From NCBI GenBank assembly GCA_049522015.1, contig JBEKOG010000010.1, forward strand, positions 21,840 to 85,839: DNA of 64,000 bases, in the 5' to 3' direction. Made by a program: the position numbers and the translations under genes. Positions 7,952-20,714 of this stretch are shown in pieces. The notes under the pieces were generated by a model that saw only the letters and a program-made list of their open reading frames with translations, searched no databases and was not told the origin of the DNA. The stretch's first letter is position 1; every line of letters starts with the position of its first letter. This DNA is from Verrucomicrobiota bacterium. Lineage in GTDB: Bacteria > Verrucomicrobiota > Verrucomicrobiia > Limisphaerales > UBA11358.

Positions 7952-10900
7952 TCAACGCGATTTTCTGGCGGTGGCAATCGCCACGACCAGCCACAGGGCG
8001 AGGAACCCGGCGAGCGACCAGCCGACCCGGCCCGGCCAGTTGCCCGTACCCGCCTTCACCACCGAAAGCTGGATGGTCATCGGCTTGTGGACTCCGGTCT
8101 GGAGCACCTGGGTGAAGGCGTAACGCAAACCGCGCGTGGGCAGGTTCACATGCAGCGGCTGCACCTTCGCCATCGCCACTTCCTGCGCACGCTGCAGCTT
8201 GACCCATTGCTGTTCGGCCGCGGCGTTGTCGTAAGGCGCCGCCGCCGGTTGTTGGGCCACACCGGAAACGGACAACTGGTCGGCCAACTGTCCTGAATTG
8301 CGCTGCGCAAATTCGTTTTGCGCCATGATCAGGTTGCTGGCCTGTGCCTGGTTCAGGTCTTTTTGAAGCTGTTTCACGTCGGTATCCCGGGATTTGTCCG
8401 CGTAATAAGTGTTCGCGGCCCGGTTGTAATTGGCCATGGCTTCGCGCACGTTGCCCGATTGCAACAACTGTTGCGCCTTGCTGACGTCCTCCTTCGCCTG
8501 CTTTTGGGCGACGGCTTTGCTTTCGCTCTCCATCCGCGAGTATTCGGACAGGGTGAAACTCAACAGCGAAGGTTTGACCGTGGCCACTTCCCGCGACATT
8601 GTCCCGCCAAAACGGTCATAGTCGTAATTGGGCGGCAGGAACAATTCCCAGCGCGCATTCTTCAAGGGCACGTCAAACTGGGGCGAGGCGAAATCAATCT
8701 GCCCGCGCGTTTTCGGGAAGCCGTTGGTGCCGACATAGGTCAGCGTCACCGGTACGGTGGCGTCGTCACCGGACTGTTCCAGCGGCAACAGCAGTTTCCC
8801 GCCATTCTGGCTGGGCCGCACCGGCTGGCCGGCCACAAACGCCGACCAGACCGTCGCTCCCGCCGGCAATTCCACTTCGAGGAACTGCCGTCCGTTGTTG
8901 CGCAAATCCAGCGACATCTCAGTCATGGTCTGGCCATCGTCGGCAACCACCGTCGTGAAACGCGCGCTGTCCACGAGCGCTTGCAACACCTCCGCTTCAT
9001 CGAAGCGCCGGGCCTCGACGACGAGCGAGTAACCGGGGCGCAGATAGCGATACGACAGCACCGGGGTGTCTTCGGCCTGCCCGGCCCATTCCGGAAAATC
9101 TCCCGCGTCCACCCGGCTTAAATCCGTGGCCACGCGCTCGGCGACTTGCAGCGGCGGTTTGGCGACAATGGCCAGCAAACCCGTTTCGCGTTCCACCCCG
9201 GCGGCGGACACGCCGGCCAGCTCAATCCGGTTGGTTCCGGCCTCGCGCGGTTCCTCCCACGTGACCGTCAGCGTGTAAAAGCCGCTGGTCTTGCCCTGCA
9301 ATTCCACCCGCCACTCGTCGCCGTTCTGATCGCGACGGCGGATGTTGGGCCCGGAGATATCCACGTTCTTGAACGCCGCGGGAATTTTCAGGCGCAGTTC
9401 CTTCACCGGGGCGTTGGCGATTTCATAACGCACCTGCGCCCGGCCGCTGATCAGCGTTTCCGAAATCGTGAAGGTGTCCGCCACCTCGGCGCGCAACCAG
9501 GCCTCGACCGTCTCCGTGGTCACGGAAAGTTTCCAATTCGGCGCGGCCTGCGGCCCGGTGGCGATGAATTTGTAGGCCAGCACACCGGCCGCCCCGCGCA
9601 AGGCATTGTAGTCGGGCAGCGAAACCACCGGCACCTCCGCCAGTCCGTCGAACGCCTCGGTCCTGGCCGCGACGCCCGGATCGGTGGAAACGGAAACGAA
9701 ACCCGTCAGCTTCTCCGTATCCAGCGGACACACCCCCTCGACCGCCAGTGACTTTGGCAATTCCTTGAGGCTTCGCGTCAGCTCCAGGCGCAGCGAATAG
9801 TTGCCGCCGGTCCGTTCCTTCAACGCCACTTCCAGCCGGCGCGCATTGCCTTCGGTCCGTTCGGACCATTGCGAAACCCTGTCGCCGATGACCTGTTCGA
9901 CGCGATAGCCGGCCGGCAGGGCCAGCCGGAGCGTGAACACGCCGGCGCGCTTGATGGTGTAGTCCACCACGGCGGAAATGTTCAGTTGATCCGAGCCAAG
10001 GCGGATGTTGTTGCGGACCACCGCCTCGATTTGCGGCTGGATCGTTTCGGCGTTAACGTTCAAATCGAATTCCGGTTTCAGGAAACGGAACACGCTGGCC
10101 AGGCCATCACCGGCCGCCGGCATGACGCGGGCAAATTCCTCCGCGTCCACGCGCTGCAAATCGGACATGGAGGCGACCGACAGGTTCAATTCCTCCGCGC
10201 CGCGCAACGCCACCAGTCCCGTTTCGCGTTTCACCTCCAGCGCGCGCGGGATTTCCACTTTCACCGTTGCCGGCAATGCCTCCAGGATTTTTTCCGTTTC
10301 CACGGTCAGGCGATAGGCGGGGGAAACTCCCTTGAGCAGGTCCGCCACCAGCGTCTGGCCGCCGTTCTCATTCCGGATTTCCCACGTGCGAATCGCCTCG
10401 CCTTCGACGCGCAACAGGCGCTGGCCTGCCGGCAGCCGCACCCGCACCTGGCGCAATTCACCCTGCGTGATTTGATAATCCAGCACGGCGCGCACGTTCA
10501 CCACGCCGCCGCCGAACGTCACCAGTGCCGCATTCTGGCAAAAGACCGTGGCGGCGGTTTCCGCGGCGCGTTTCATGCGCGGTGTCCACAGCAATTCCAC
10601 GGAGCCGCTCGAGCCGATGACGGCCTCGACGCGTGTCCGGTCCTTGACCGTGGCGTGTTTGAAGGAAATGGCGGTGGGGAAATCCACGTCCGCGTCCGGC
10701 TGGTCCAGCGTGAGCACGAACTGGCTGGACAGCGCCGGCGGAATGCCGAACACCAGCCGCCGTTTGGTCACGTCGCCACCAGGTTTGACCAGCAGCCTGA
10801 TTTGCACGGTTGCCGCGCCGCGCCGCCCGAGTTGCACGGCCACGGCGTCGCCGTCGCGAACCAGGCTGGCCTCGCCGGATTTTACGGAGAATTGTTGCAC

Positions 10901-13900
10901 GGCCACGTCCGCGCCGAACAATGGAATTTTCTGGTCCGGTTTTGCCGACGACAGTTGCAACGTGGCGTCGAGTTGCGCCACCCGGTCGTTCACCGACCCG
11001 GCATAGCTGGCAGACAGGATGGAAACGCCGGTGATGGGGGACGGCAAATTGCGGGTGGCAGGTTCCGCCGCCCGGGCGCTCACGAGACCAAGTGCCAGCA
11101 ACAAAACCATGGCCGCCAGGACCGGGGGCGGGGTGGTTTGCGGCGAAGGGTTGCCGCCGTTGCCGTCGGTTGGCGGAGTGCGGCGCGGCCAGTATTTCCA
11201 GACCAATCGCGCGATGACCGCCAGCGCCACCAACGGAAATCCGATGATGAGCACGTCATGCAGCGCGCGCCAGGCAATCAGCAGACTGCACACCGACGCG
11301 AGGATCAGCACCAGCGCGAGGGTGAGTACGAAGGTGTTGGGCTGTTCCCGCCGCCATTGCCAGCCGAAGACGAGCAAACCGAGAACGAACGCACCCGCCT
11401 GCCCGACCATCTGCAACATCTGGAAGGCGTGCAGCGACATGACTTTGGCGCGGATGGAAAGCGGCTCGCCGCCGTCGCGCACGTTCAGGACCTTGGTGAA
11501 CAGGAATGAATTGCCGGTGTGCGGAATCTCGATGCGGATGGAACGAATGCCGGAAACGGTCGGCAACGGAGCGGCAACCGGCTCTTCCTCCGAAACCAGC
11601 ATACCGCCGGCCGAAACCGGGGGAGCAGCCACCGGCAATCCTGTTGTTTCATCGATTCTTTCACCTCCGGCCGGAGCCATGGCATTCGTAATCGTAACTG
11701 TGGCTGTTGTGCCCGCCACCACGCCACCGCCACCACCACCAGCCGCCAACCCCACAATTCTTTGGCGCTGCACCGGCGCGGGCGCAGTTCCAAGAGATTG
11801 CCTTCCCAACACCGCCTCGGTCTGTTTTCTTCGGTCCAGTTCGTCCTGCGGAACCAGTTTGAGAAAACCGCGCTGCTGAATTTCAGCGAATTGTGTGCTG
11901 CTCATCTGCTGTACGCTGCCGTCGGCATACAGCACGGAACAATGGTCATTGTTCATGGGTGAGAACGCCAGCACCGAGTCCGGCTCCAAGGCCGCCTCCG
12001 AACAGCCTCCGCCCACGTAAACAAACCGCTGCTGGCTTTCCGGGTCAATCGTGACCATGTCCGAACCGAGCTCATTTTTCATCTCCTCGAACGACGCCGG
12101 CAACCGGTCGTTGTTGTCCCCGGAGAAAAGCCGCACCGCGATGCCGATTTGCTTGAGGTTGCTGACCGCGTTGATGCGTTGCGCCTTGCGCTTGGCGCTG
12201 GAGAGCGCGGGCAGCAACATTCCGCCCAGCACGGCCAGAATCATAAACACCACAAACACGGTGATGACCCCGTTCCAGCCGCGGCGCACGGCGGAAACCA
12301 CCAGGGCAATCACCAGAAACGCCAGGATCCCCATGACAAAAAGGCCCGCGCCGGCTTCCCGCAGCACCGTGCCATAAAACGCGAGGAACCTTTGCCAGCC
12401 GTCCAGCAGTCCGTAGGTCGTGCCCTGAGCCACGCTCATGCTGCCATCAAAGCTGGATAGCCGTTTGGAAGCCGGCACATAAAGCTCCCACTCGGCATAG
12501 GTGTTCGGCACGTCGGTCCGGGGCGCAGCCAGTTCGAGCCGCCCCGGCCAGCGGGAATTCAACGCCCGGTTGGTCTGGGCGTACACGATGTCCACGGCGA
12601 ACGTCTGGTCACGGTTGATGTTGCGTGGCAACGGCACCAGCACCCAGTCGCCATCGCGCTCCGGTTTGGCGGGCCGGTTGTTGACGTAGCAGCCCCACAA
12701 ATCCGCACCCTTGGGCAGCAGGAACTTTTGGGACTGCTTTTCGTTGTTCTTCACCATGAACGAAGCTTGGGTCAGCATCTCCCCCGCCTCGGTAAGGACG
12801 GAGGTGATTTCCGTCCGGTCCGCCACTGCCTCGAGCACCGGCACCTCCCCGTGCCGCTGCACTTCCAGCGAAAGATCGTATTGGTCGCCGGTGTATTGAT
12901 AGGCCAGCAGGATGTTGCGTGTGATCAAGGCGCGGTCGGCCGCGGCCAGTTCCGCTTCGTCCACGCGATGCAACGAACCGCTGACCGGCTTCGGATTGAG
13001 TTTCAGGCTTGCGGCGGTGGTGACGGCAATCGAACCCGTCTCGCGCTCCACGTCGAGCGTGTGGATGCCGCCGACCGGCAACGTCGCGCTTTTCGGATCG
13101 AACTGGTAGTCGTAGGTGATCACCAAGGTGTAACCGCCCCAGACCTTGTCCTGCAGACCGATGGTCCAAACATCGCCGGACAGTTCCTTGCGCCGGATGT
13201 TCGGCCCGGTGAATTCGACATTCCGGCAGTAGGGCGGCAGCTTCACCTTGAATTCCTGCACGCCTTGGTTGATGAGACCGTAACGAACCGTTGCGCTGCC
13301 GCCCGCCAGTCCGTCGCCGATGGTCACCAGGTTGAAAACATCCGCCACCACGCGCGCCGCCAGCCGTTCGTCCGCCAGCGTCAGCTTCCAATCCGGCTGT
13401 TCAGCCGTGAAGGCCAGCAATTCATCGGAATGATTTTGCAGCCGGTTGACGGGAATTTCACGGAGGCCGCCCAGTTCGGCGGTTTTCAAGCGGATGCCCG
13501 GCGCCGAGACCGCGCCGATTTGCGCGGTCTCCTTGGCCGCGCCGGTGACGCGCAGGGGAGCAACCGTAATCCGGTCCGGAAACGCTTTCAAAGCCTGTTC
13601 CAGTTGCACTTGCAACGTGCGCGAACCGAGGACACGGCTCGCAAAGCTTACCATCAGTTTGCCGGCGGTGACGTTCCAGTCCTCCACCCCTTCGCCGCGC
13701 ACGTCGGCCACGACCATTCCCGGTGGCGGAACGAGGTCGAGCGTGTAAATGCCGGTCTTCTCAATGTTCAGCGCCAGGTTATGCGAAACCAGCAGGCGCG
13801 CTTCTTCCAGCCGCACTCCAACGCGGTCGGCAACGTTGATGACCGGCTCGATGCGCTTGACTTTGAGGGCGAGACTGAAGGGACGCGCGTTGAAACGATA

Positions 13901-14887
13901 CGCCGCGAGTTCGTTGCTGGCGGCATTGACCTGCCGCAGACCGCCGAGTGATTCCACTTCGACGAGCGTGTCCTCGGTTGCCAGCTTAAGCACGCCGGAT
14001 TCGCGGTCAATGTCGAGCGGTTGCGGTGGATTCAACTGCGCCGTCGCGGGCGTGGCTTCGAGGGTTTGCTCGGAAAAGACGGTGAGGTCGTATTCCTGTT
14101 CGACGGGTTTGATGAATTCAACGGTGAGAACCTGCCGGTCGCCGTCGGGTTTGATCTGCCAGTCGCGGATTTGTTCACCCGCCAGCCGCGTCAACGACTG
14201 GCCGGCCGGCAGCGCGAGGGTGAGGCCCGGGGCGTTGCCCTGGACGATTTCGTAATGGAATTTGGTGGTGTATTTGACGACGGTGGGCGTGATCTGCGCT
14301 GTCGCCAGAGTGTCCACGGTGAGCAGCGCCTTGCGCGCCACTTCGGCAACCTTCCCCTGCCAGCGCAAGGCCACGGTCTGGTCCGCGCCCAGAAATCCGC
14401 GCAGGCACGAGACGCCGTTGGTCTGCATGGATTCGAGCAGCGTGCCGTTGAGCAGTTGAATTTCCACCCCCGCACTGGCGGCCTGCGCGGTCACCGACGC
14501 GATGGCGGCGGCGGGGCCGGTGAAGGAAATCTGGTTCCACGGCTCGGCGCGCTGAATTTTGGCGACGAGGTCGAGTTTGAACCGGTACTGGCCCGGCCGG
14601 GTGGCGGTCAGGAGATAGCGGTTGCCGTCGCGGGTGATTTGCAAATCGGACGGCAATTTCACCGGCAACAACGCCACGTCGCCCTCAAACAATTTCACCG
14701 TCGCCTCGCCTTTGCCGGCGACCGCGATGTCCAGGTCCACGGCGAAGCGCGCTTCGTCATCGGACAATTTCGCGTCGTAGCGGACTTCGTTAAGGGACAA
14801 CCCGGCGGGCGGCGCCACGACTGGGCCCGGCAAAGCCGCAATCGCCGGAAACAGACAAACAAACAGGGTGAGGACTTTGTGGTTCAT
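7952..14887 (-). CDS. Giant (2311 aa) multi-domain envelope protein of unknown function; two paralogous halves
   Basis: Uninterrupted 7-kb ORF; GGAG 7 nt upstream of ATG 14887; signal peptide MNHKVLTLFVCLFPAIAALPG; internal TM clusters; C-terminal TM anchor WSLAGFLALWLVVAIATARKSR. Confidence 0.85.
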   Translation of the reverse strand: MNHKVLTLFVCLFPAIAALPGPVVAPPAGLSLNEVRYDAKLSDDEARFAVDLDIAVAGKGEATVKLFEGDVALLPVKLPSDLQITRDGNRYLLTATRPGQYRFKLDLVAKIQRAEPWNQISFTGPAAAIASVTAQAASAGVEIQLLNGTLLESMQTNGVSCLRGFLGADQTVALRWQGKVAEVARKALLTVDTLATAQITPTVVKYTTKFHYEIVQGNAPGLTLALPAGQSLTRLAGEQIRDWQIKPDGDRQVLTVEFIKPVEQEYDLTVFSEQTLEATPATAQLNPPQPLDIDRESGVLKLATEDTLVEVESLGGLRQVNAASNELAAYRFNARPFSLALKVKRIEPVINVADRVGVRLEEARLLVSHNLALNIEKTGIYTLDLVPPPGMVVADVRGEGVEDWNVTAGKLMVSFASRVLGSRTLQVQLEQALKAFPDRITVAPLRVTGAAKETAQIGAVSAPGIRLKTAELGGLREIPVNRLQNHSDELLAFTAEQPDWKLTLADERLAARVVADVFNLVTIGDGLAGGSATVRYGLINQGVQEFKVKLPPYCRNVEFTGPNIRRKELSGDVWTIGLQDKVWGGYTLVITYDYQFDPKSATLPVGGIHTLDVERETGSIAVTTAASLKLNPKPVSGSLHRVDEAELAAADRALITRNILLAYQYTGDQYDLSLEVQRHGEVPVLEAVADRTEITSVLTEAGEMLTQASFMVKNNEKQSQKFLLPKGADLWGCYVNNRPAKPERDGDWVLVPLPRNINRDQTFAVDIVYAQTNRALNSRWPGRLELAAPRTDVPNTYAEWELYVPASKRLSSFDGSMSVAQGTTYGLLDGWQRFLAFYGTVLREAGAGLFVMGILAFLVIALVVSAVRRGWNGVITVFVVFMILAVLGGMLLPALSSAKRKAQRINAVSNLKQIGIAVRLFSGDNNDRLPASFEEMKNELGSDMVTIDPESQQRFVYVGGGCSEAALEPDSVLAFSPMNNDHCSVLYADGSVQQMSSTQFAEIQQRGFLKLVPQDELDRRKQTEAVLGRQSLGTAPAPVQRQRIVGLAAGGGGGGVVAGTTATVTITNAMAPAGGERIDETTGLPVAAPPVSAGGMLVSEEEPVAAPLPTVSGIRSIRIEIPHTGNSFLFTKVLNVRDGGEPLSIRAKVMSLHAFQMLQMVGQAGAFVLGLLVFGWQWRREQPNTFVLTLALVLILASVCSLLIAWRALHDVLIIGFPLVALAVIARLVWKYWPRRTPPTDGNGGNPSPQTTPPPVLAAMVLLLALGLVSARAAEPATRNLPSPITGVSILSASYAGSVNDRVAQLDATLQLSSAKPDQKIPLFGADVAVQQFSVKSGEASLVRDGDAVAVQLGRRGAATVQIRLLVKPGGDVTKRRLVFGIPPALSSQFVLTLDQPDADVDFPTAISFKHATVKDRTRVEAVIGSSGSVELLWTPRMKRAAETAATVFCQNAALVTFGGGVVNVRAVLDYQITQGELRQVRVRLPAGQRLLRVEGEAIRTWEIRNENGGQTLVADLLKGVSPAYRLTVETEKILEALPATVKVEIPRALEVKRETGLVALRGAEELNLSVASMSDLQRVDAEEFARVMPAAGDGLASVFRFLKPEFDLNVNAETIQPQIEAVVRNNIRLGSDQLNISAVVDYTIKRAGVFTLRLALPAGYRVEQVIGDRVSQWSERTEGNARRLEVALKERTGGNYSLRLELTRSLKELPKSLAVEGVCPLDTEKLTGFVSVSTDPGVAARTEAFDGLAEVPVVSLPDYNALRGAAGVLAYKFIATGPQAAPNWKLSVTTETVEAWLRAEVADTFTISETLISGRAQVRYEIANAPVKELRLKIPAAFKNVDISGPNIRRRDQNGDEWRVELQGKTSGFYTLTVTWEEPREAGTNRIELAGVSAAGVERETGLLAIVAKPPLQVAERVATDLSRVDAGDFPEWAGQAEDTPVLSYRYLRPGYSLVVEARRFDEAEVLQALVDSARFTTVVADDGQTMTEMSLDLRNNGRQFLEVELPAGATVWSAFVAGQPVRPSQNGGKLLLPLEQSGDDATVPVTLTYVGTNGFPKTRGQIDFASPQFDVPLKNARWELFLPPNYDYDRFGGTMSREVATVKPSLLSFTLSEYSRMESESKAVAQKQAKEDVSKAQQLLQSGNVREAMANYNRAANTYYADKSRDTDVKQLQKDLNQAQASNLIMAQNEFAQRNSGQLADQLSVSGVAQQPAAAPYDNAAAEQQWVKLQRAQEVAMAKVQPLHVNLPTRGLRYAFTQVLQTGVHKPMTIQLSVVKAGTGNWPGRVGWSLAGFLALWLVVAIATARKSR

Positions 14888-15047
14888 AACAATCTCCATC
14901 TTTGATGGTTGAGCCTTGGTGGAAAAATCGGCTTCATGGAAAATCATTTGGCTTTGTACGCGCGCCGCCGGGGCCGGTTGCAAACAGGGGATTGGTGGGG
15001 CGCGGCGTGCGTGACTTCAGAAAGGAGGCGCGAATTCCGCTCAAAGC

Positions 15048-15262: not shown

Positions 15263-15523
15263 ATGGCGACAGGAAAAACTCAGAAACAGTCATCCGGCGG
15301 CTCCGCTCTTGGTTTCGAAGCAACACTCTGGGCTACGGCTGACAAATTGCGCGGTAATCTCGACGCCGCCGAATACAAGCACGTCGTCCTCGGTCTCATA
15401 TTCCTGAAATACATCTCCGACGAATCCCGCACCCTCGCCGCGTTGCGCGATGCGCTGCTGCCGAAGCTGCTGTCGGGCGAGGTGCGCGTGCCCGCCGCAA
15501 AAAAACTTGTCGGTCTTGAATGA
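15263..15523 (+). pseudogene. Type I R-M remnant: HsdM N-terminus (53 aa) fused in frame to an HsdS C-terminus (33 aa)
   Basis: [32 protein letters not shown] is the HsdM_N signature. From codon 54 it reads [24 protein letters not shown], the conserved HsdS C-terminal helix. No methyltransferase catalytic or target-recognition domains. Confidence 0.75.
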
Positions 15524-15540: not shown

Positions 15541-18162
15541 ATGCAAGCTCAACCAAAAACCATTCGTGATATCCTCCACACCGGGGATCAATACATCATT
15601 CCGCTGTTCCAGCGTTATTATTCCTGGACCAAGGAGCATTGGGAACGATTGCGCATGGATGTGTGGGCGCTGATGGAGAACGGCGCAAAGCCGGTTCATT
15701 TCCTCGGGCCGTTGGTCTGCACGCAACCGCCGCATCTTCCCGGTAACGCATCCGCCTACCAACTCATTGATGGACAGCAACGCATCACCACGCTGACGAT
15801 CCTCTTGGCTGCCATCCGGGATGTTGCGCGGTCGCGTAATCTCAACGATTTTGCTGAGGAGGTGACAGAGGACTATCTCCTGTTCAAACGCAAGCAAGGC
15901 AGCGACCGATACAAGGTTCTGCCCCGCCTCGGCGACCGCGAAGTGCTCACGGCCATGATCGAGGGAAATGATATGTCGGGCTTTTCAGACAGCCCCGTTT
16001 TTGAAGCGTGGAAATATTTTCACCGTCACGTCCAGCATTTGTCCCGCAAAGATACGGAACAACAACTGGCCAAGCTGTTGGATGTCATCACCACCCGTTT
16101 GAATTTGGTGGCCGTTCTGATTGATAGCGAGAATCCCTACGAAATTTTTGACAGCCTTAATTCCACCGGCTTGCCCCTTAAAGAGTCTGACCTCATACGC
16201 AACTTTGTTTTCATGGAAATCCCGTTGGCCAAGCAACAGGAGTTTAATGATCAACACTGGAAAGAGTTTGAGAAGGTGTTCGATGCCAACGACACCGAAG
16301 AGGCCATAGAAATGACGCCGTTTTACCGGGATTACCTCATGCGGAACGGCAAGTATTCGAAGGAAGATGCCACGTTCGTGGATTTCAAAAATGCTCATGA
16401 GGATGCCGTGCGGCAGCCGGAAGTGATGATTGGCGAACTGAAGCGTTACGCCAGACTCGACCTCATGCTGCGCCGCCCGGGGGCAGTCAAGGATGCGACG
16501 CTACGTGGCATTCTGCGTCAAGTGGACGGCATGGAAATCACCACGGCCTATCCACTGCTGCTGAATCTGTTGGACCGCAATGACCGGGGACAATTGAGCA
16601 AGGAGGATTTGTGCGGCTGCCTTGAGGACCTCGTCAGTTTTGTTCTTCGCCGCTCCATCTGCGGTGAAACGACGCGCACCTATGGCAAGTGGTTTGTCGA
16701 AGCCATCACCGTAATTCGCGACCATCCGCGCCGCGATCTGCAAACCTACTGGCTCAGCCGACGTTGGCCAGATGATGCTGCGGTCAAGGCCCGTCTGCCC
16801 AGCTTCGAATTGTATCGCCGCGAAAGCACCAAAACTCGTGTAATTCTTGAGGCGCTGGAAGAAAGTTTTGGCCACCGCGAGCGCGTGGATCTCTCCACCC
16901 TGACTATCGAGCACGTCATGCCTCAGACCATTACCAATAACAAGCACGGCAAGGCTTGGAAGGAGATGCTCGGCGCGGATTGGGAAAAAACCCACGAGAC
17001 GCTGCTTCATACCTTGGGCAATCTCACGCTCACCGGCTATAACACCGAGTTGAGCAATTCCGCCTTTGAGATCAAGAAGGTTGAACTCGCCAAGAGCCAT
17101 TTGGACCTCAACTCTTACTTCAATGCTCTGCCCAAATGGGATGCCGAAACGATCCGGGTGCGGACGGCTGTTCTGGCTGAACGCTTGGTTACACTCTGGC
17201 CCCGGCCCGCAACGGAAGTGGTTTATGCCGCTTCCGCCGAAGCGATGCCTGAGCCGGAGGGGTTGAACAACGCCGCCAAGCAGCGTCTCGAATATTGGCG
17301 ACATATGGATGTCCGGTTGGAGGAACGGGGAGTTCCGCGCGATTTCATTGTCGCTGCGCCGGATTCCTCCATTACCGCCAGCATCGGCGACTCCGGAGCC
17401 GCCGAGTTTGAGTTCGGCTTCAACCAGCAGCGTGGTCGGATTTTTGTTTCGTTGAATCTTTCCGATGAGATTGGCGCTTTCATTGCCAAGCACCTGTCCG
17501 AGGCCAAAGTCGCTATCGAACAGGAATTGGGTTATTCGCTTGATTGGGAGATTCGCAACCAGGGCGGCGAGATTTCCATCGCGGACGAAGGGATTCAAAT
17601 TCGCGATGAGAACGATTGGCCGGTTCAACACGATTGGTTTGGGGATCGGCTGGAGGATTTCCAGCGCGTTCTCCAGCCGCGCGTCATTGCGCTTGAAAAA
17701 GAGGCCCTCAAAGACCCCGAGCTTCGCCAGGCTTATGAACAGCGCGGGTTGCTCGTTAGATATTGGCGCGCCTGTTCGGCGGCCTTGGTCGGTTCACGGC
17801 TTTCGTTTCGTGAGAATGCCCCGGATGCTGGCCGCACCCTTTGCCGGTTTAGGCCGCTCGACGACGGCGTGTATTTGGGCGCGCAGTATTATCCCACCAC
17901 TTCCCAGCTCTGTGTTTATTTTGCCGTTTGGAGTTCGGCTGCGCGAAAGCAACGCCAGCTCTTTAAGGAACTCGTCGAAAGCCATATTCCCGAACTAGAA
18001 ACTCAGATCGGTGAAAAACTTCATTGGGAAGACCCGTATTTTTGGGTTTCCATACCGGCAGACATCGGCACGTCGTCGGACTGGCCCCGGCAACATCAGT
18101 GGGTAAAAGAAACGGCAGAGAAGTTTATTGCCACCTTCAAACCGCGTCTTGGCATCGAATAA
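15541..18162 (+). CDS. GmrSD-like DUF262-DUF1524 nuclease with two tandem DUF4268-like C-terminal modules
   Basis: 873 aa; DUF262/ParB-like motif YQLIDGQQRITTLTILLAAI; DUF1524 His-Me finger region TIEHVMPQT...LLHTLGNLTLTGYNTELSN; duplicated ~140-aa C-terminal modules (see findings). Confidence 0.85.
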   Translation: MQAQPKTIRDILHTGDQYIIPLFQRYYSWTKEHWERLRMDVWALMENGAKPVHFLGPLVCTQPPHLPGNASAYQLIDGQQRITTLTILLAAIRDVARSRNLNDFAEEVTEDYLLFKRKQGSDRYKVLPRLGDREVLTAMIEGNDMSGFSDSPVFEAWKYFHRHVQHLSRKDTEQQLAKLLDVITTRLNLVAVLIDSENPYEIFDSLNSTGLPLKESDLIRNFVFMEIPLAKQQEFNDQHWKEFEKVFDANDTEEAIEMTPFYRDYLMRNGKYSKEDATFVDFKNAHEDAVRQPEVMIGELKRYARLDLMLRRPGAVKDATLRGILRQVDGMEITTAYPLLLNLLDRNDRGQLSKEDLCGCLEDLVSFVLRRSICGETTRTYGKWFVEAITVIRDHPRRDLQTYWLSRRWPDDAAVKARLPSFELYRRESTKTRVILEALEESFGHRERVDLSTLTIEHVMPQTITNNKHGKAWKEMLGADWEKTHETLLHTLGNLTLTGYNTELSNSAFEIKKVELAKSHLDLNSYFNALPKWDAETIRVRTAVLAERLVTLWPRPATEVVYAASAEAMPEPEGLNNAAKQRLEYWRHMDVRLEERGVPRDFIVAAPDSSITASIGDSGAAEFEFGFNQQRGRIFVSLNLSDEIGAFIAKHLSEAKVAIEQELGYSLDWEIRNQGGEISIADEGIQIRDENDWPVQHDWFGDRLEDFQRVLQPRVIALEKEALKDPELRQAYEQRGLLVRYWRACSAALVGSRLSFRENAPDAGRTLCRFRPLDDGVYLGAQYYPTTSQLCVYFAVWSSAARKQRQLFKELVESHIPELETQIGEKLHWEDPYFWVSIPADIGTSSDWPRQHQWVKETAEKFIATFKPRLGIE

Positions 18163-18269
18163 TGGTCTTCACCGAATCCATCGTCAAAGATGCGGCGCTG
18201 CTGCCGAAGCTACTGTCGGGCGAGTTGCGCGTGCCCGCCACAATGTGCAAGCTGGAGGCCAGCGTATGA
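18162..18269 (+). pseudogene. 35-codon chimeric stub: HsdR-type N-terminus fused to an HsdS C-terminus
   Basis: MVFTESIVKDAAL + [13 protein letters not shown]; ATG overlaps the upstream TAA (TAATG, 18160-18164); TGA overlaps the darT ATG (ATGA, 18266-18269). Confidence 0.55.
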
Positions 18270-18853
18270 ATCCACGGGTCACAGAACTTCAATGCATCAT
18301 GCCGCTGGAAAACATTCCTTCGGTCCTGAAGCTTGGCATTCTGTCGAACGAGCGGGCGGCGAAAGTTCCGCACTATTCCGTTGCGCTGGAGGTGGTACAG
18401 GAACGGCGCGACCACAAAAACGTGCCCGGTGGTTTGAAACTGCATCAATACGCCAACCTCTATTTTCACGCCCGCAATCCGATGCTCTTTAAAAGAAAGG
18501 ATGCGGCGGCGACGTTATGCGTCTTGCGTGTTTCCACGGAAGTGAGGCATATTGACGGCGTGGTCATCACGGATCGCAATGCATCGAGCGATTATGTGCG
18601 CTTCCTGCATCCGTCACAGGCAGGATTGCTGGACTATGACGCAATTTTTGCGTCAGATTGGCGGCATCCGAACGATCCAATCGCTTACTATCGCCATCGT
18701 TCGCAAAAGTGTGCGGAAGTGCTCGTCCCTCATTGTGTCGAACCAAAACATTTGACCGGAGCATACGTGGTTGATGAGGCTGTCGCTTCCCAATTAACGT
18801 CGGCAGGCTTCGCCATGCCGGTCACAATTGATCCAGTCATGTTTTTCCGTTAA
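18266..18853 (+). CDS. darT: DarT, DUF4433 ssDNA ADP-ribosyltransferase toxin
   Basis: 196 aa from ATG 18266; IMPLENIPSVLKLGILS, ERRDHKNVPGGLKLHQYANLYFHARNPMLF, VITDRNASS, and QKCAEVLV (catalytic Glu context) parallel Thermus DarT as I recall it. The ORF-track start at 18128 runs through the preceding stub. Confidence 0.85.
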   Translation: MNPRVTELQCIMPLENIPSVLKLGILSNERAAKVPHYSVALEVVQERRDHKNVPGGLKLHQYANLYFHARNPMLFKRKDAAATLCVLRVSTEVRHIDGVVITDRNASSDYVRFLHPSQAGLLDYDAIFASDWRHPNDPIAYYRHRSQKCAEVLVPHCVEPKHLTGAYVVDEAVASQLTSAGFAMPVTIDPVMFFR

Positions 18854-18865
18854 CCCCAAACTGCC

Positions 18866-19978
18866 ATGTTTAAAGCACTCTTAGGCGACCTGTTTGCCAC
18901 CCAAGCCCAGACGCGGGTGAACACGGTCAATTGCATCGGCATCATGGGCAAAGGCGTGGCGCAAGAGTTCAAGAAACGTTACCCGGCGATGTTCGAGGAT
19001 TACGCCAGGCGTTGCGAGCGGAAACAGGTGCGTCTCGGCGAGCCGTATCCTTACCGCGATGCGTCGGGAATTCTTATCGTAAATTTTCCAACCAAAGATC
19101 ATTGGCGGTCGCCGTCGCGTCTGGCGGACATCGAGCGAGGGCTGGATTATTTTGTGCAGCATCATGCGGAATGGGGTGTCAAGAGCGTGGCCTTCCCGCC
19201 GCTCGGGTGTGGCAATGGCGGGCTCAGTTGGGAGGAAGTCGGACCGTTGATGTATGGGAAACTGCGGCATTTGGACATCGAGGTCGAGGTTTATGCGCCG
19301 TACGGAACACCCAAGAGCCAATTGGAAGAAGATTTCCTTGGTGGTCCGTCTCAGATGGAACTGGAGGGCAGAGGCCGCAAGCACGAGAAGATGAATCCCG
19401 AATGGGTGGTCTTGATGGAGGTCCTCCGCGAATTGGAGAAGCAGCCTTATGCCAGTCCGGTGGGCCGGACGATTTTTCAAAAGATTTGTTACGTCGTCAC
19501 TGAGATGGGAGTTCAGACCGGCTTCCAGTTTGGCAAGGGTAGCTACGGGCCGTTCGCCGACGAGGTGAAGCTGGCATTGCATGATTTCGCGAACAGGAAC
19601 TGGCTGCATGAGGAGCGACTGGGGAAGATGATCGCATTGCGTGTCGGCCCGCAGTACGAGAAGGAGCGATTAAAATACGAGGAAATCTTGAAGCGGCATG
19701 AGCGAAAGATTTCCAAAACAGTGGATCTGTTCAGCCGCATCAAGAACACGGAACAGGCTGAGGAAGTGCTGACGGTGTTATTTGCAAGCCGCCAGTTGAA
19801 GCAGGCTAAACCGCAACACGAAGTCGCCGAACAGGATCTTTTCGAATACATCCTCAATTGGAAGAAAACATGGCAGACCGACGAGAAGAAACAGGCGGTG
19901 GCCAGTGCTATCCGAAATCTGGTCATGTTAGGCTGGATGCGATTGCAGTTCAGCGAATCCCTTCCTGATGCGGTGTAG
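18866..19978 (+). CDS. darG: DarG, macrodomain antitoxin
   Basis: 370 aa; N-terminal macrodomain loops NCIGIMGKGVAQEF and FPPLGCGNGGLSWEEV; ~200-aa helical C-terminal domain; sits 12 nt after darT. Confidence 0.85.
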   Translation: MFKALLGDLFATQAQTRVNTVNCIGIMGKGVAQEFKKRYPAMFEDYARRCERKQVRLGEPYPYRDASGILIVNFPTKDHWRSPSRLADIERGLDYFVQHHAEWGVKSVAFPPLGCGNGGLSWEEVGPLMYGKLRHLDIEVEVYAPYGTPKSQLEEDFLGGPSQMELEGRGRKHEKMNPEWVVLMEVLRELEKQPYASPVGRTIFQKICYVVTEMGVQTGFQFGKGSYGPFADEVKLALHDFANRNWLHEERLGKMIALRVGPQYEKERLKYEEILKRHERKISKTVDLFSRIKNTEQAEEVLTVLFASRQLKQAKPQHEVAEQDLFEYILNWKKTWQTDEKKQAVASAIRNLVMLGWMRLQFSESLPDAV

Positions 19979-19984
19979 CCGCCA

Positions 19985-20047
19985 ATGCCATCATTCACCG
20001 AATCCATTGTTGAACTTCTGTGCGCGGAATGGGACGGGCAAGGATGA
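19985..20047 (+). pseudogene. 20-codon stub resembling an HsdR N-terminus
   Basis: MPSFTESIVELLCAEWDGQG; its TTCACCGAATCCATTGT repeats 18168-18184 with 16/17 identity. Confidence 0.35.
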
Positions 20048-20081
20048 ATCAGTATTGATTCATGCCCGGCGCCGGTTAAAC

Positions 20082-20714
20082 ATGGCGGTGATGATTCCGG
20101 GTGGGGAAAGTGAATTAATCGCGCGCTGCCGTCGCGGTGAGGCGGCGGCGTGGGACGAATTGTTCGACCGGCATTACGAGGCAACGGCGCGGTTTGTCTT
20201 CCAACTCGGACACGATCTGGCGCGCGAGGACGTGGAGGAAATCTGCCAGGAGGTTTTTCTTTCGGTCATCAAAAATCTCGGCTCGTTCCAGGGCGAAAGC
20301 CGGTTTCAGACCTGGCTCTTTCGCATCGCCGTCAACCGGGCGTGCGATTACCGCGAACACCGCGCGGCCGCCAAACGCGGCGGGGGAGCGACCCCGGTTT
20401 CCCTGGACGCCGGGGATGACGACCGCCCGCCGATTGACCCGCCGGCCCCCACGCCCGGTCCGGACGCCAGCCTGCTGGCCGCCGAACGGCTGGCGCTTGT
20501 CCGGCAGGCGGTAGACCGGTTGGAAGCGCCGTGCCGCGAAATCATTGAGTTGCGTTATTTTGGTGATTTGAGTTACGAGGAAATCGGCGGCACATTGAAA
20601 TTGAACACGAAGACCGTCAGTTCGCGACTAAGCAAATGCCTCGACCGGCTGGAAATCATCGCCCGGACGCTTTTTGCGGAGGAATCGGACAACCCAATTC
20701 CGTCCAACACCTGA
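20082..20714 (+). CDS. ECF-type RNA polymerase sigma-70 family factor
   Basis: Region 2 EICQEVFLSVIKNLGSFQGESRFQTWLFRIAVNRACDY and region 4 EIIELRYFGDLSYEEIGGTLKLNTKTVSSRLSKCLDRL; ATG 20082 preferred over the ORF-track start at 19968. Confidence 0.9.
   Translation: MAVMIPGGESELIARCRRGEAAAWDELFDRHYEATARFVFQLGHDLAREDVEEICQEVFLSVIKNLGSFQGESRFQTWLFRIAVNRACDYREHRAAAKRGGGATPVSLDAGDDDRPPIDPPAPTPGPDASLLAAERLALVRQAVDRLEAPCREIIELRYFGDLSYEEIGGTLKLNTKTVSSRLSKCLDRLEIIARTLFAEESDNPIPSNT

Follow-up and report, generated by a model that had tools for sequence, protein, structure and literature searches.

Twin DUF4268 modules on a GmrSD-family nuclease from a type I restriction-modification island: a candidate sensor for modified DNA or another infection cue

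What does a GmrSD-family nuclease gain from two further modules at its C-terminus, and do the toxin and antitoxin genes that follow it belong to the same system? Both questions are raised by a gene in a 64,000-nucleotide stretch of a Verrucomicrobiota genome (lineage UBA11358; assembly GCA_049522015.1, contig JBEKOG010000010.1, positions 21,840 to 85,839 of the forward strand), which we call the window and whose relevant features are collected in Table 1. Judged by its sequence, the open reading frame (ORF) is an intact, HEC-06-like type IV restriction endonuclease of the GmrSD family. A DUF4268 module that was duplicated in tandem long ago makes up its last 300 residues. Members of the widespread clade to which the gene belongs are normally found as cargo of type I restriction-modification (R-M) operons, inserted between hsdS and hsdR. 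We propose, with a probability of roughly 60%, that the twin DUF4268 modules are the sensor or specificity module of this nuclease.

Pfam and the translation of the ORF agree with an earlier sequence-only reading, which had described an N-terminal GmrSD-type DUF262–DUF1524 core with the motifs DGQQR and EHVMPQT. The latter occupies amino acids (aa) 457–463, and LHTLGNLTLTGYN corresponds to aa 489–501. An alignment of 25 homologues with identities down to 40% revealed that D77, G78, Q79, Q80 and R81 are invariant, as are E457, H458, N494 and N501 of the His-Me finger, and the (D/E)H...N...N pattern of GmrSD enzymes is complete in the DUF1524 domain. By homology, DUF262 with its DGQQR motif is predicted to bind and hydrolyse nucleotides, and DUF1524 would cut modified DNA of the kind found in phages. 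The PADLOC profiles Orf5 (1e-154) and HEC-06 (3e-64) match end to end over aa 2–555. In the full-length AlphaFold2 model (predicted local distance difference test score, pLDDT, 83.8; predicted template modelling score, pTM, 0.71) the protein is a single chain with a helical linker between DUF262 and DUF1524, and its fold resembles that of solved GmrSD members. The best Foldseek matches of the core in the PDB, all with a probability of 1.00, were DndI (9jfl; 2e-12), SspE (7drr; 6e-11) and BrxU (7p9k; 1e-5).

The likeness to characterised GmrSD-family enzymes ends with this core. HEC-06 and PADLOC Orf5 share the DGQQR and EH(x)xP motifs and the placement within larger defence operons, but their models span 543–569 positions and lack DUF4268, whereas the protein studied here adds about 300 aa comprising two DUF4268 modules. 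BrxU, the GmrSD enzymes EcoCT and Eco94, SspE and DndI have the same fold of DUF262, helical linker and DUF1524, and BrxU additionally resembles our protein, for which this is predicted, in having a type IV or modification-sensing role inside another defence system, BREX. None of these proteins carries DUF4268, however; sequence similarity to them is confined to the DUF262 region, and SspE and DndI both sense phosphorothioate DNA.

The sequence-only reading had also stated that the last ~300 aa consist of two copies of one module resembling DUF4268, and both parts of that statement hold. A Pfam scan of the whole protein located DUF4268 (PF14088) in two stretches (E 4.7e-22), and each copy scanned alone exceeds the gathering cut-off of 27 (Table 1). 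The internal repeat is supported far beyond chance: hhalign of the copy 1 profile against the copy 2 profile, both built from 97 full-length homologues, gave a probability of 99.9% (E 6.2e-33 over 136 columns with 18% identity), BLASTP aligned the two halves over 69 aa (E 6e-7), and AlphaFold2 predicts the same unit twice.

Modelling of aa 566–873 with 26 aligned sequences yielded a pLDDT of 92.2 and a pTM of 0.79. Both copies are modelled with the same order of elements, alpha-beta3-alpha(2)-beta2-alpha: a helix is followed by three strands, a pair of short helices, two more strands and a final long helix. The two copies are predicted to pack as one confident unit, and the pTM of 0.79 points to a fixed mutual arrangement. 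When the twin was compared with the PDB by Foldseek, the best match was ARPC2 (E 4e-5; TM only ~0.2), in which the fold also occurs as a tandem pair. Single-domain matches were the type III secretion chaperones Spa15 and InvB (TM 0.62), ExsC, CesT and SicP, as well as YbjN. The predicted topology agrees with the two-layer fold of these proteins; the TM-scores of the matches are modest and the sequence identity is about 10%. By sequence, the twin profile found nothing meaningful in the PDB (best E-value 0.8), and no solved structure contains DUF4268. New here is the assignment of the confidently modelled twin to a fold, an alpha/beta sandwich that appears secretion-chaperone-like and not EVE-like. 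We see no sign of a phage origin, because Foldseek gave no convincing match in viral predicted structures and no relative was found on the viral contigs scanned.

The protein is one more member of a widespread and already catalogued GmrSD subtype. More than 100 clusters (90% identity) from a collection of 5.8 billion proteins align with it end to end at about 870 aa, with identities from 100% down to ~40%; named relatives come from Verrucomicrobiota, Planctomycetota (Pirellulimonas, Posidoniimonas), Nitrospiraceae and metagenome-assembled genomes of Gammaproteobacteria. When DUF4268 copies were counted in the 120 best clusters with our own hidden Markov models (HMMs) of copy 1 and copy 2, 108 had two copies (mostly ~870 aa long, three of them ~990 aa with an extra insert of ~130 aa between the copies). 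Nine had one copy (six of ~720–736 aa and three of 835–875 aa), and three of 521–591 aa, core only or partial, had none; one representative of 1047 aa apparently has three. In the available portions of two bioinformatic catalogues, DUF4268 is found among the further domains of GmrSD homologues, "most often associated with DUF262 and DUF1524" (Machnicka et al. 2015, PMC4619093), and as a typical C-terminal addition in this His-Me finger group (Jablonska et al. 2017, PMC5714182). As far as these portions extend, they describe the same combination, with "one or two additional domains", but do not single out the tandem pair and contain neither a structure nor experiments. The claim of the sequence-only reading that the twin extension lies outside the characterised enzymes therefore stands in one respect only: no experimentally characterised GmrSD enzyme carries DUF4268, but the design as such is common and has been catalogued since 2015.

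Within this clade the two copies are the least conserved part of the protein. Among close homologues (70–100% overall identity, n=28), identity amounts to 88% in DUF262, 80% in the linker, 80% in DUF1524, 66% in copy 1 and 57% in copy 2. The corresponding values for distant homologues (35–55% overall, n=36) are 58%, 50%, 54%, 24% and 16%. The twin region is thus the fastest-diverging stretch, and copy 2 is the most divergent part of the whole protein. Compared with the window protein, the L095 and L098 proteins are 86% identical in the core and 66–74% in the twin. The copies also differ in charge, copy 1 being strongly acidic (the family median of its net charge is -10) and copy 2 carrying a net charge of +2. 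Since one copy is acidic and the other basic, they appear to have diverged functionally. Both the charge asymmetry and the rapid divergence of the two DUF4268 copies are described here for the first time.

The genomic setting of the clade was surveyed in the contexts of homologues and in 36 metagenomic loci found with the twin module, all of which were screened for HsdM, HsdS, HsdR, DarT and DarG. Type I R-M genes are present in ~19 of the 28 loci with enough flanking DNA, usually in the order hsdM-hsdS-(cargo)-GmrSD_DUF4268x2-(cargo)-hsdR, which bears out for this clade the remark in the sequence-only reading that DUF4268 is frequent near hsdM and hsdS. Intact examples, in which the gene has hsdS before it and hsdR after it in the same orientation, are L082, L088, L095, L096, L098, L103 and the P0020 context; in L082 and L095 hsdR directly follows the GmrSD gene with a stop-start overlap (TAATG). 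Three more of the ~28 loci, the window included, hold R-M remnants only, and six are devoid of type I R-M genes, one of them adjoining a type III-like mod/res pair. As controls we used GmrSD genes in which our clade-specific HMMs (which may miss distant copies) detected no DUF4268; in 11 of 46 such loci, hsdM or hsdR likewise lies at a distance of no more than 7 kb. The link to R-M is thus more pronounced in this clade, though not restricted to DUF4268. GmrSD-like genes embedded in type I R-M and Hma systems have been reported (bioRxiv 10.1101/2024.01.29.577857), and the gap between hsdS and hsdR has been described as a hotspot of recombination whose cargos include DarTG2 (PMC12255303).

A role of the twin in sensing is suggested by the company that DUF4268 keeps. 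The twin profile matches 6,928 clusters at 50% identity (E up to 1e-3), and the partners of the module among the top 146 proteins include GmrSD, Ser/Thr kinases, HSDR_N-type PD-(D/E)XK, NucS_C, phospholipase D (PLD), HEPN, TIR and FRG domains. Attachment of a single module to many different effectors is typical of sensors. Likewise, a fast-diverging twin attached to a conserved core is as expected of a specificity surface. DUF4268 is the sole non-nuclease domain of Madara/PDC-S11 and of MdgA/MdgB. These proteins restrict phage T4 containing glucosylated hydroxymethylcytosine and spare T4 with unmodified cytosine, each works in E. coli as a single gene, and T4 DNA is cleaved in vitro by MdgA with no partner present (bioRxiv 10.64898/2026.09.05.749240; 10.1101/2025.02.28.640651). 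For HEC-06, loss of defence on mutation of DGQQR or EH has been documented (Payne et al., bioRxiv 10.1101/2024.01.29.577857). A sensor or reader, already among the roles suggested by the sequence-only reading, is the best reading of the fusion partners and of the Madara and MdgA/B papers. Most likely the twin pair would help the enzyme to recognise modified DNA, or a different cue of infection, and would thereby set the range of phages that are restricted. Within a type I R-M operon, the enzyme would complement R-M by attacking modified DNA that escapes it.

Kinship with Madara/PDC-S11 is limited to the module. Positions 168–313 of the PDC-S11 profile match aa 572–716, and in PADLOC the PDC-S11 profiles match the 873-aa protein solely within aa 572–721, through their C-terminal halves. 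Unlike our protein, with its GmrSD core and two DUF4268 copies, Madara/PDC-S11 and MdgA/MdgB consist of an N-terminal NucS-like PD-(D/E)XK nuclease and one DUF4268. Membership in the Madara/PDC-S11/MdgA family was considered and rejected, since the module is common to both while the nuclease differs.

Some further arrangements were noted in the wider DUF4268 family. In kinase fusions the module directly follows the Ser/Thr catalytic domain, in some of them with WD40 or SBP_bac_3 thereafter and in one with two DUF4268 copies, and there are proteins made up of four or five tandem DUF4268 copies only (kinase and tandem examples: P0160, P0166, P0173, P0224, P0258, P0131, P0138). Further fusions involve TIR, HEPN_Swt1, FRG, PLDc_2 and HSDR_N.

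Several observations weigh against a sensor of DNA. EcoCT GmrSD, BrxU and HEC-06 discriminate modified DNA without DUF4268; hence, this activity does not in principle depend on the module. Structural matches of the predicted fold are secretion chaperones, which bind proteins, YbjN and ARPC2 (TM up to 0.62), while EVE, PUA, YTH, ASCH and SRA reader structures are absent from the top 50 PDB matches of Foldseek, which do not reproduce the distant EVE-likeness that the Madara authors ascribe to DUF4268. The strongly acidic copy 1 is unfavourable for binding of the DNA backbone, fusions to Ser/Thr kinases, TIR and HEPN need no DNA reader, and the faster divergence of the twin could reflect weaker constraint.

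The same observations lend themselves to a different explanation, in which the twin does not read DNA but binds proteins or mediates oligomerisation, its two copies forming a pseudo-dimer of a secretion-chaperone-like fold within one chain. Such a pseudo-dimer could hold the nuclease inactive, trap a protein of the phage, for example an anti-restriction factor, or dock the enzyme on the type I R-M complex (HsdR/HsdM) in the way that PrrC is held by EcoprrI. This would fit the dimeric state of the matching type III secretion chaperones, the match to YbjN and the tandem duplication in ARPC2, as well as the acidity of copy 1, which is shared by secretion chaperones. The position of DUF4268 between kinase and WD40 or SBP domains and its fusions to TIR and HEPN point in the same direction, and the overlap of the gene's stop with the hsdR start in L082 and L095 suggests co-translation with HsdR. 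However, the modest scores and low identity of the structural matches, the single-gene activity of Madara and MdgA/B, and the partner-free cleavage of T4 DNA by MdgA speak against this explanation. It is further disfavoured by the absence of type I R-M in the vicinity in ~6 of 28 clade loci and by the window gene itself, which has stayed intact although its R-M genes are lost. On balance we regard a protein-binding or oligomerising twin as rather unlikely.

More speculative still, and in our estimate a long shot, is a pseudo-dimeric, secretion-chaperone-like twin, acidic in one half and basic in the other, that senses a protein and couples the type IV nuclease to type I R-M or to a phage protein. 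The clade would then be a PrrC-like "guard" of type I R-M, normally co-translated with HsdR. As a linked possibility, the in-frame gene stubs described below and the repeated hsdS 3' ends may mark a general route of R-M operon fusion and cargo swapping; in that case the stub mini-ORFs would be kept because they hold downstream cargo in translational coupling.

Whether the gene is still functional has to be judged against the state of the R-M genes around it. The 86-aa ORF upstream of it is identified by its two halves as a remnant of a deleted hsdM-hsdS pair. It has a Pfam HsdM_N match at aa 19–54, 56% identity to an intact HsdM N-terminus (BLASTP E 5e-21), and a tail with 84% identity over 25 aa to residues 388–412 of an intact HsdS of 423 residues (BLASTP E 6e-12). 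This stub probably still leads the operon. The 35-aa stub downstream, whose N-terminus compares with those of intact HsdR proteins (MKFTESTVEDAAL in L082; MAFTESIVEDATL in L095), overlaps the GmrSD stop with its start (TAATG) and the darT start with its stop (ATGA). The 20-aa stub after darG is assigned through the intact HsdR C-terminus ...AELLCSDWAA* and a DNA identity of 97% to the hsdR 3' remnant of L086. The two copies of the 49-nucleotide direct repeat bracket the GmrSD gene exactly. The resulting layout, hsdM'::'hsdS, GmrSD-DUF4268x2, hsdR'::'hsdS, darT darG, hsdR'::'hsdR, resembles the outcome of a deletion that joined two hsdS-to-hsdR cargo cassettes, after which every R-M gene was removed. 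All three scars are in frame, for which the chance is ~1 in 27, and have kept start/stop overlaps with their neighbours (TAATG, ATGA), which might reflect selection for translational coupling.

Related loci have been reshaped in similar ways. An independent hsdR'::'hsdS fusion is present in L090, and hsdR 5' stubs follow the GmrSD gene in L094, L098 and L106. In L114 (7837–9927) a 696-aa ORF joins HsdM_N and half of N6_Mtase straight to the DUF4268 twin, and in L086 (1551–2875) the 5' end of hsdM is joined to the GmrSD gene at ~codon 493. R-M and cargo genes appear to have been eroded repeatedly by internal deletions in this lineage, and the data suggest that crossovers by which cargo is exchanged or operons fuse take place at the hsdS 3' repeat. 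Extra hsdS 3' ends were also seen inside the locus, between cargo genes, in L084, L088 and L090.

Given this decay, the gene might be taken for an inactive relic of a defence island, without current function. All three flanking type I R-M genes have indeed been deleted to stubs, and in L086 and L114 the deletions truncate the GmrSD gene itself. Yet the frame of 873 codons is open and retains all catalytic and structural residues that are invariant in the family, the identical protein has already been recorded in a cluster with 30 member sequences, and the start/stop overlaps of the three in-frame mini-ORFs would keep the downstream genes translated. We therefore find the relic explanation very improbable.

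Least credible of all is the suggestion of the sequence-only reading that the twin serves as an interaction platform coupling the enzyme to co-transcribed DarTG, for, although the genes are adjacent on the same strand, connected by start/stop overlaps through the 35-aa stub and not separated by any predicted terminator-like site, neither DarT nor DarG was detected by tblastn in any of 119 related loci, and in relatives the same slot holds at least four other cargo sets, or nothing (Table 1). L084 and L085 are ~92–93% identical in DNA to the window across the GmrSD gene, but their homology stops before darT, their downstream flanks reaching only ~0.6 kb beyond the gene. Homology of close relatives to the window ends at ~18174–18240, near the hsdS 3' repeat upstream of darT, and the junction to darT is itself an hsdR'::'hsdS deletion scar. 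DarTG is, moreover, independently known as cargo of type I R-M systems (PMC12255303). With no conserved co-occurrence and varied cargo in the slot, a DarTG-coupled system was rejected. Fusion of two hsdS-to-hsdR operons would have brought DarTG alongside without making it a functional partner, and recognition of the adjacency as incidental is new here. The RptR-RMS-DarTG2 island of enteropathogenic E. coli (PMC12255303) and PrrC in the EcoprrI locus likewise have defence cargo between hsdS and hsdR; the window, by contrast, retains no more than stubs of the R-M genes and has two cargo cassettes in a row. ORFs of the same size as the 498–499-aa deaminase protein of L088 and L090, compared by size alone, were noted in L091, L099 and L100.

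Table 1. Features of the twin-DUF4268 gene and its surroundings in the window, and cargo found after the GmrSD gene in related loci (ADP-ribosyltransferase acts on single-stranded DNA, ssDNA; pI, isoelectric point; wHTH, winged helix-turn-helix)
Feature	Position	Strand	Basis or remark
GmrSD-family type IV restriction enzyme gene, two C-terminal DUF4268 modules, 873 aa	15541..18162	+	ATG start; Pfam, PADLOC, AlphaFold2, Foldseek
DUF262/GmrSD_N ParB-like NTPase domain, aa 9-224	15565..16212	+	Pfam PF03235, E 1.1e-34
DGQQR motif, aa 77-81	15769-15783	+	inside DUF262
DUF1524/GmrSD_C His-Me finger nuclease domain, aa 409-547	16765..17181	+	Pfam PF07510, E 1.2e-25
DUF4268 copy 1, aa 577-722	17269..17706	+	Pfam, 57.1 bits; AlphaFold2; acidic, pI 4.6, net charge -13
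DUF4268 copy 2, aa 726-870	17716..18150	+	Pfam, 30.3 bits; hhalign to copy 1; mildly basic, pI 8.5
86-aa in-frame stub, HsdM N-terminus (aa 2-54) :: HsdS C-terminus (aa 52-76 + tail)	15263..15523	+	Pfam, BLASTP
35-aa in-frame stub, starting MVFTESIVKDAAL, HsdR N-terminus :: HsdS C-terminus	18162..18269	+	translation
20-aa in-frame stub MPSFTESIVE::LLCAEWDGQG*, first ~10 + last ~10 hsdR codons	19985..20047	+	sequence, repeat D8
49-nucleotide direct repeat D1, left copy, hsdS 3' coding end	15452..15500	+	repeat search
49-nucleotide direct repeat D1, right copy	18195..18243	+	94% identical to left copy
darT, ssDNA ADP-ribosyltransferase toxin	18266..18853	+	Pfam DarT, E 4.4e-30
darG, macrodomain antitoxin	18866..19978	+	Pfam Macro, E 3.2e-19
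Cargo after GmrSD gene, window			DarT-DarG
Cargo after GmrSD gene, L086	2929-3951		RhuM-family protein
Cargo after GmrSD gene, L088	10080-11573		498-499-aa cytidine-deaminase/HATPase_c_4/wHTH protein
Cargo after GmrSD gene, L090	10065-11561		498-499-aa cytidine-deaminase/HATPase_c_4/wHTH protein
Cargo after GmrSD gene, L096	9786-13363		AAA ATPase + S8 subtilase
Cargo after GmrSD gene, L098	10033-13896		AAA ATPase + S8 subtilase
Cargo after GmrSD gene, L106	10148-11832		HipA-like + HIRAN
Cargo after GmrSD gene, P0020 context			HipA-like + HIRAN
Cargo after GmrSD gene, L082 and L095			none; hsdR directly next

Two neighbouring ORFs of the window deserve a brief comment. The ORF of an extracytoplasmic function (ECF) sigma factor (19968–20714), as listed, overlaps the end of darG and the hsdR stub. 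Its Sigma70_r2 match begins at residue 65, so that the true start is probably located downstream, for instance at an ATG near 20082; given such a start, the right edge of the defence island probably lies at ~20050. On the other side, a 2343-aa ORF (7952–14983, minus strand) is oriented divergently from the defence operon, is without a Pfam match at E-values as high as 1, and lies in a stretch with a G+C content of 0.62–0.63 compared with ~0.54–0.59 nearby.

Our analysis bears on a large domain family, DUF4268, that recurs in defence effectors; the domain has been proposed to sense the modification in newly described type IV nucleases (bioRxiv 10.64898/2026.09.05.749240; 10.1101/2025.02.28.640651). 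The locus in the window clearly illustrates the acquisition of cargo by type I R-M islands and the loss of their R-M genes. The clade of GmrSD enzymes with twin DUF4268 modules represents a well-sampled natural series in which the core is conserved while the candidate sensor diverges, and which comprises proteins with one, two and apparently three copies of the module.

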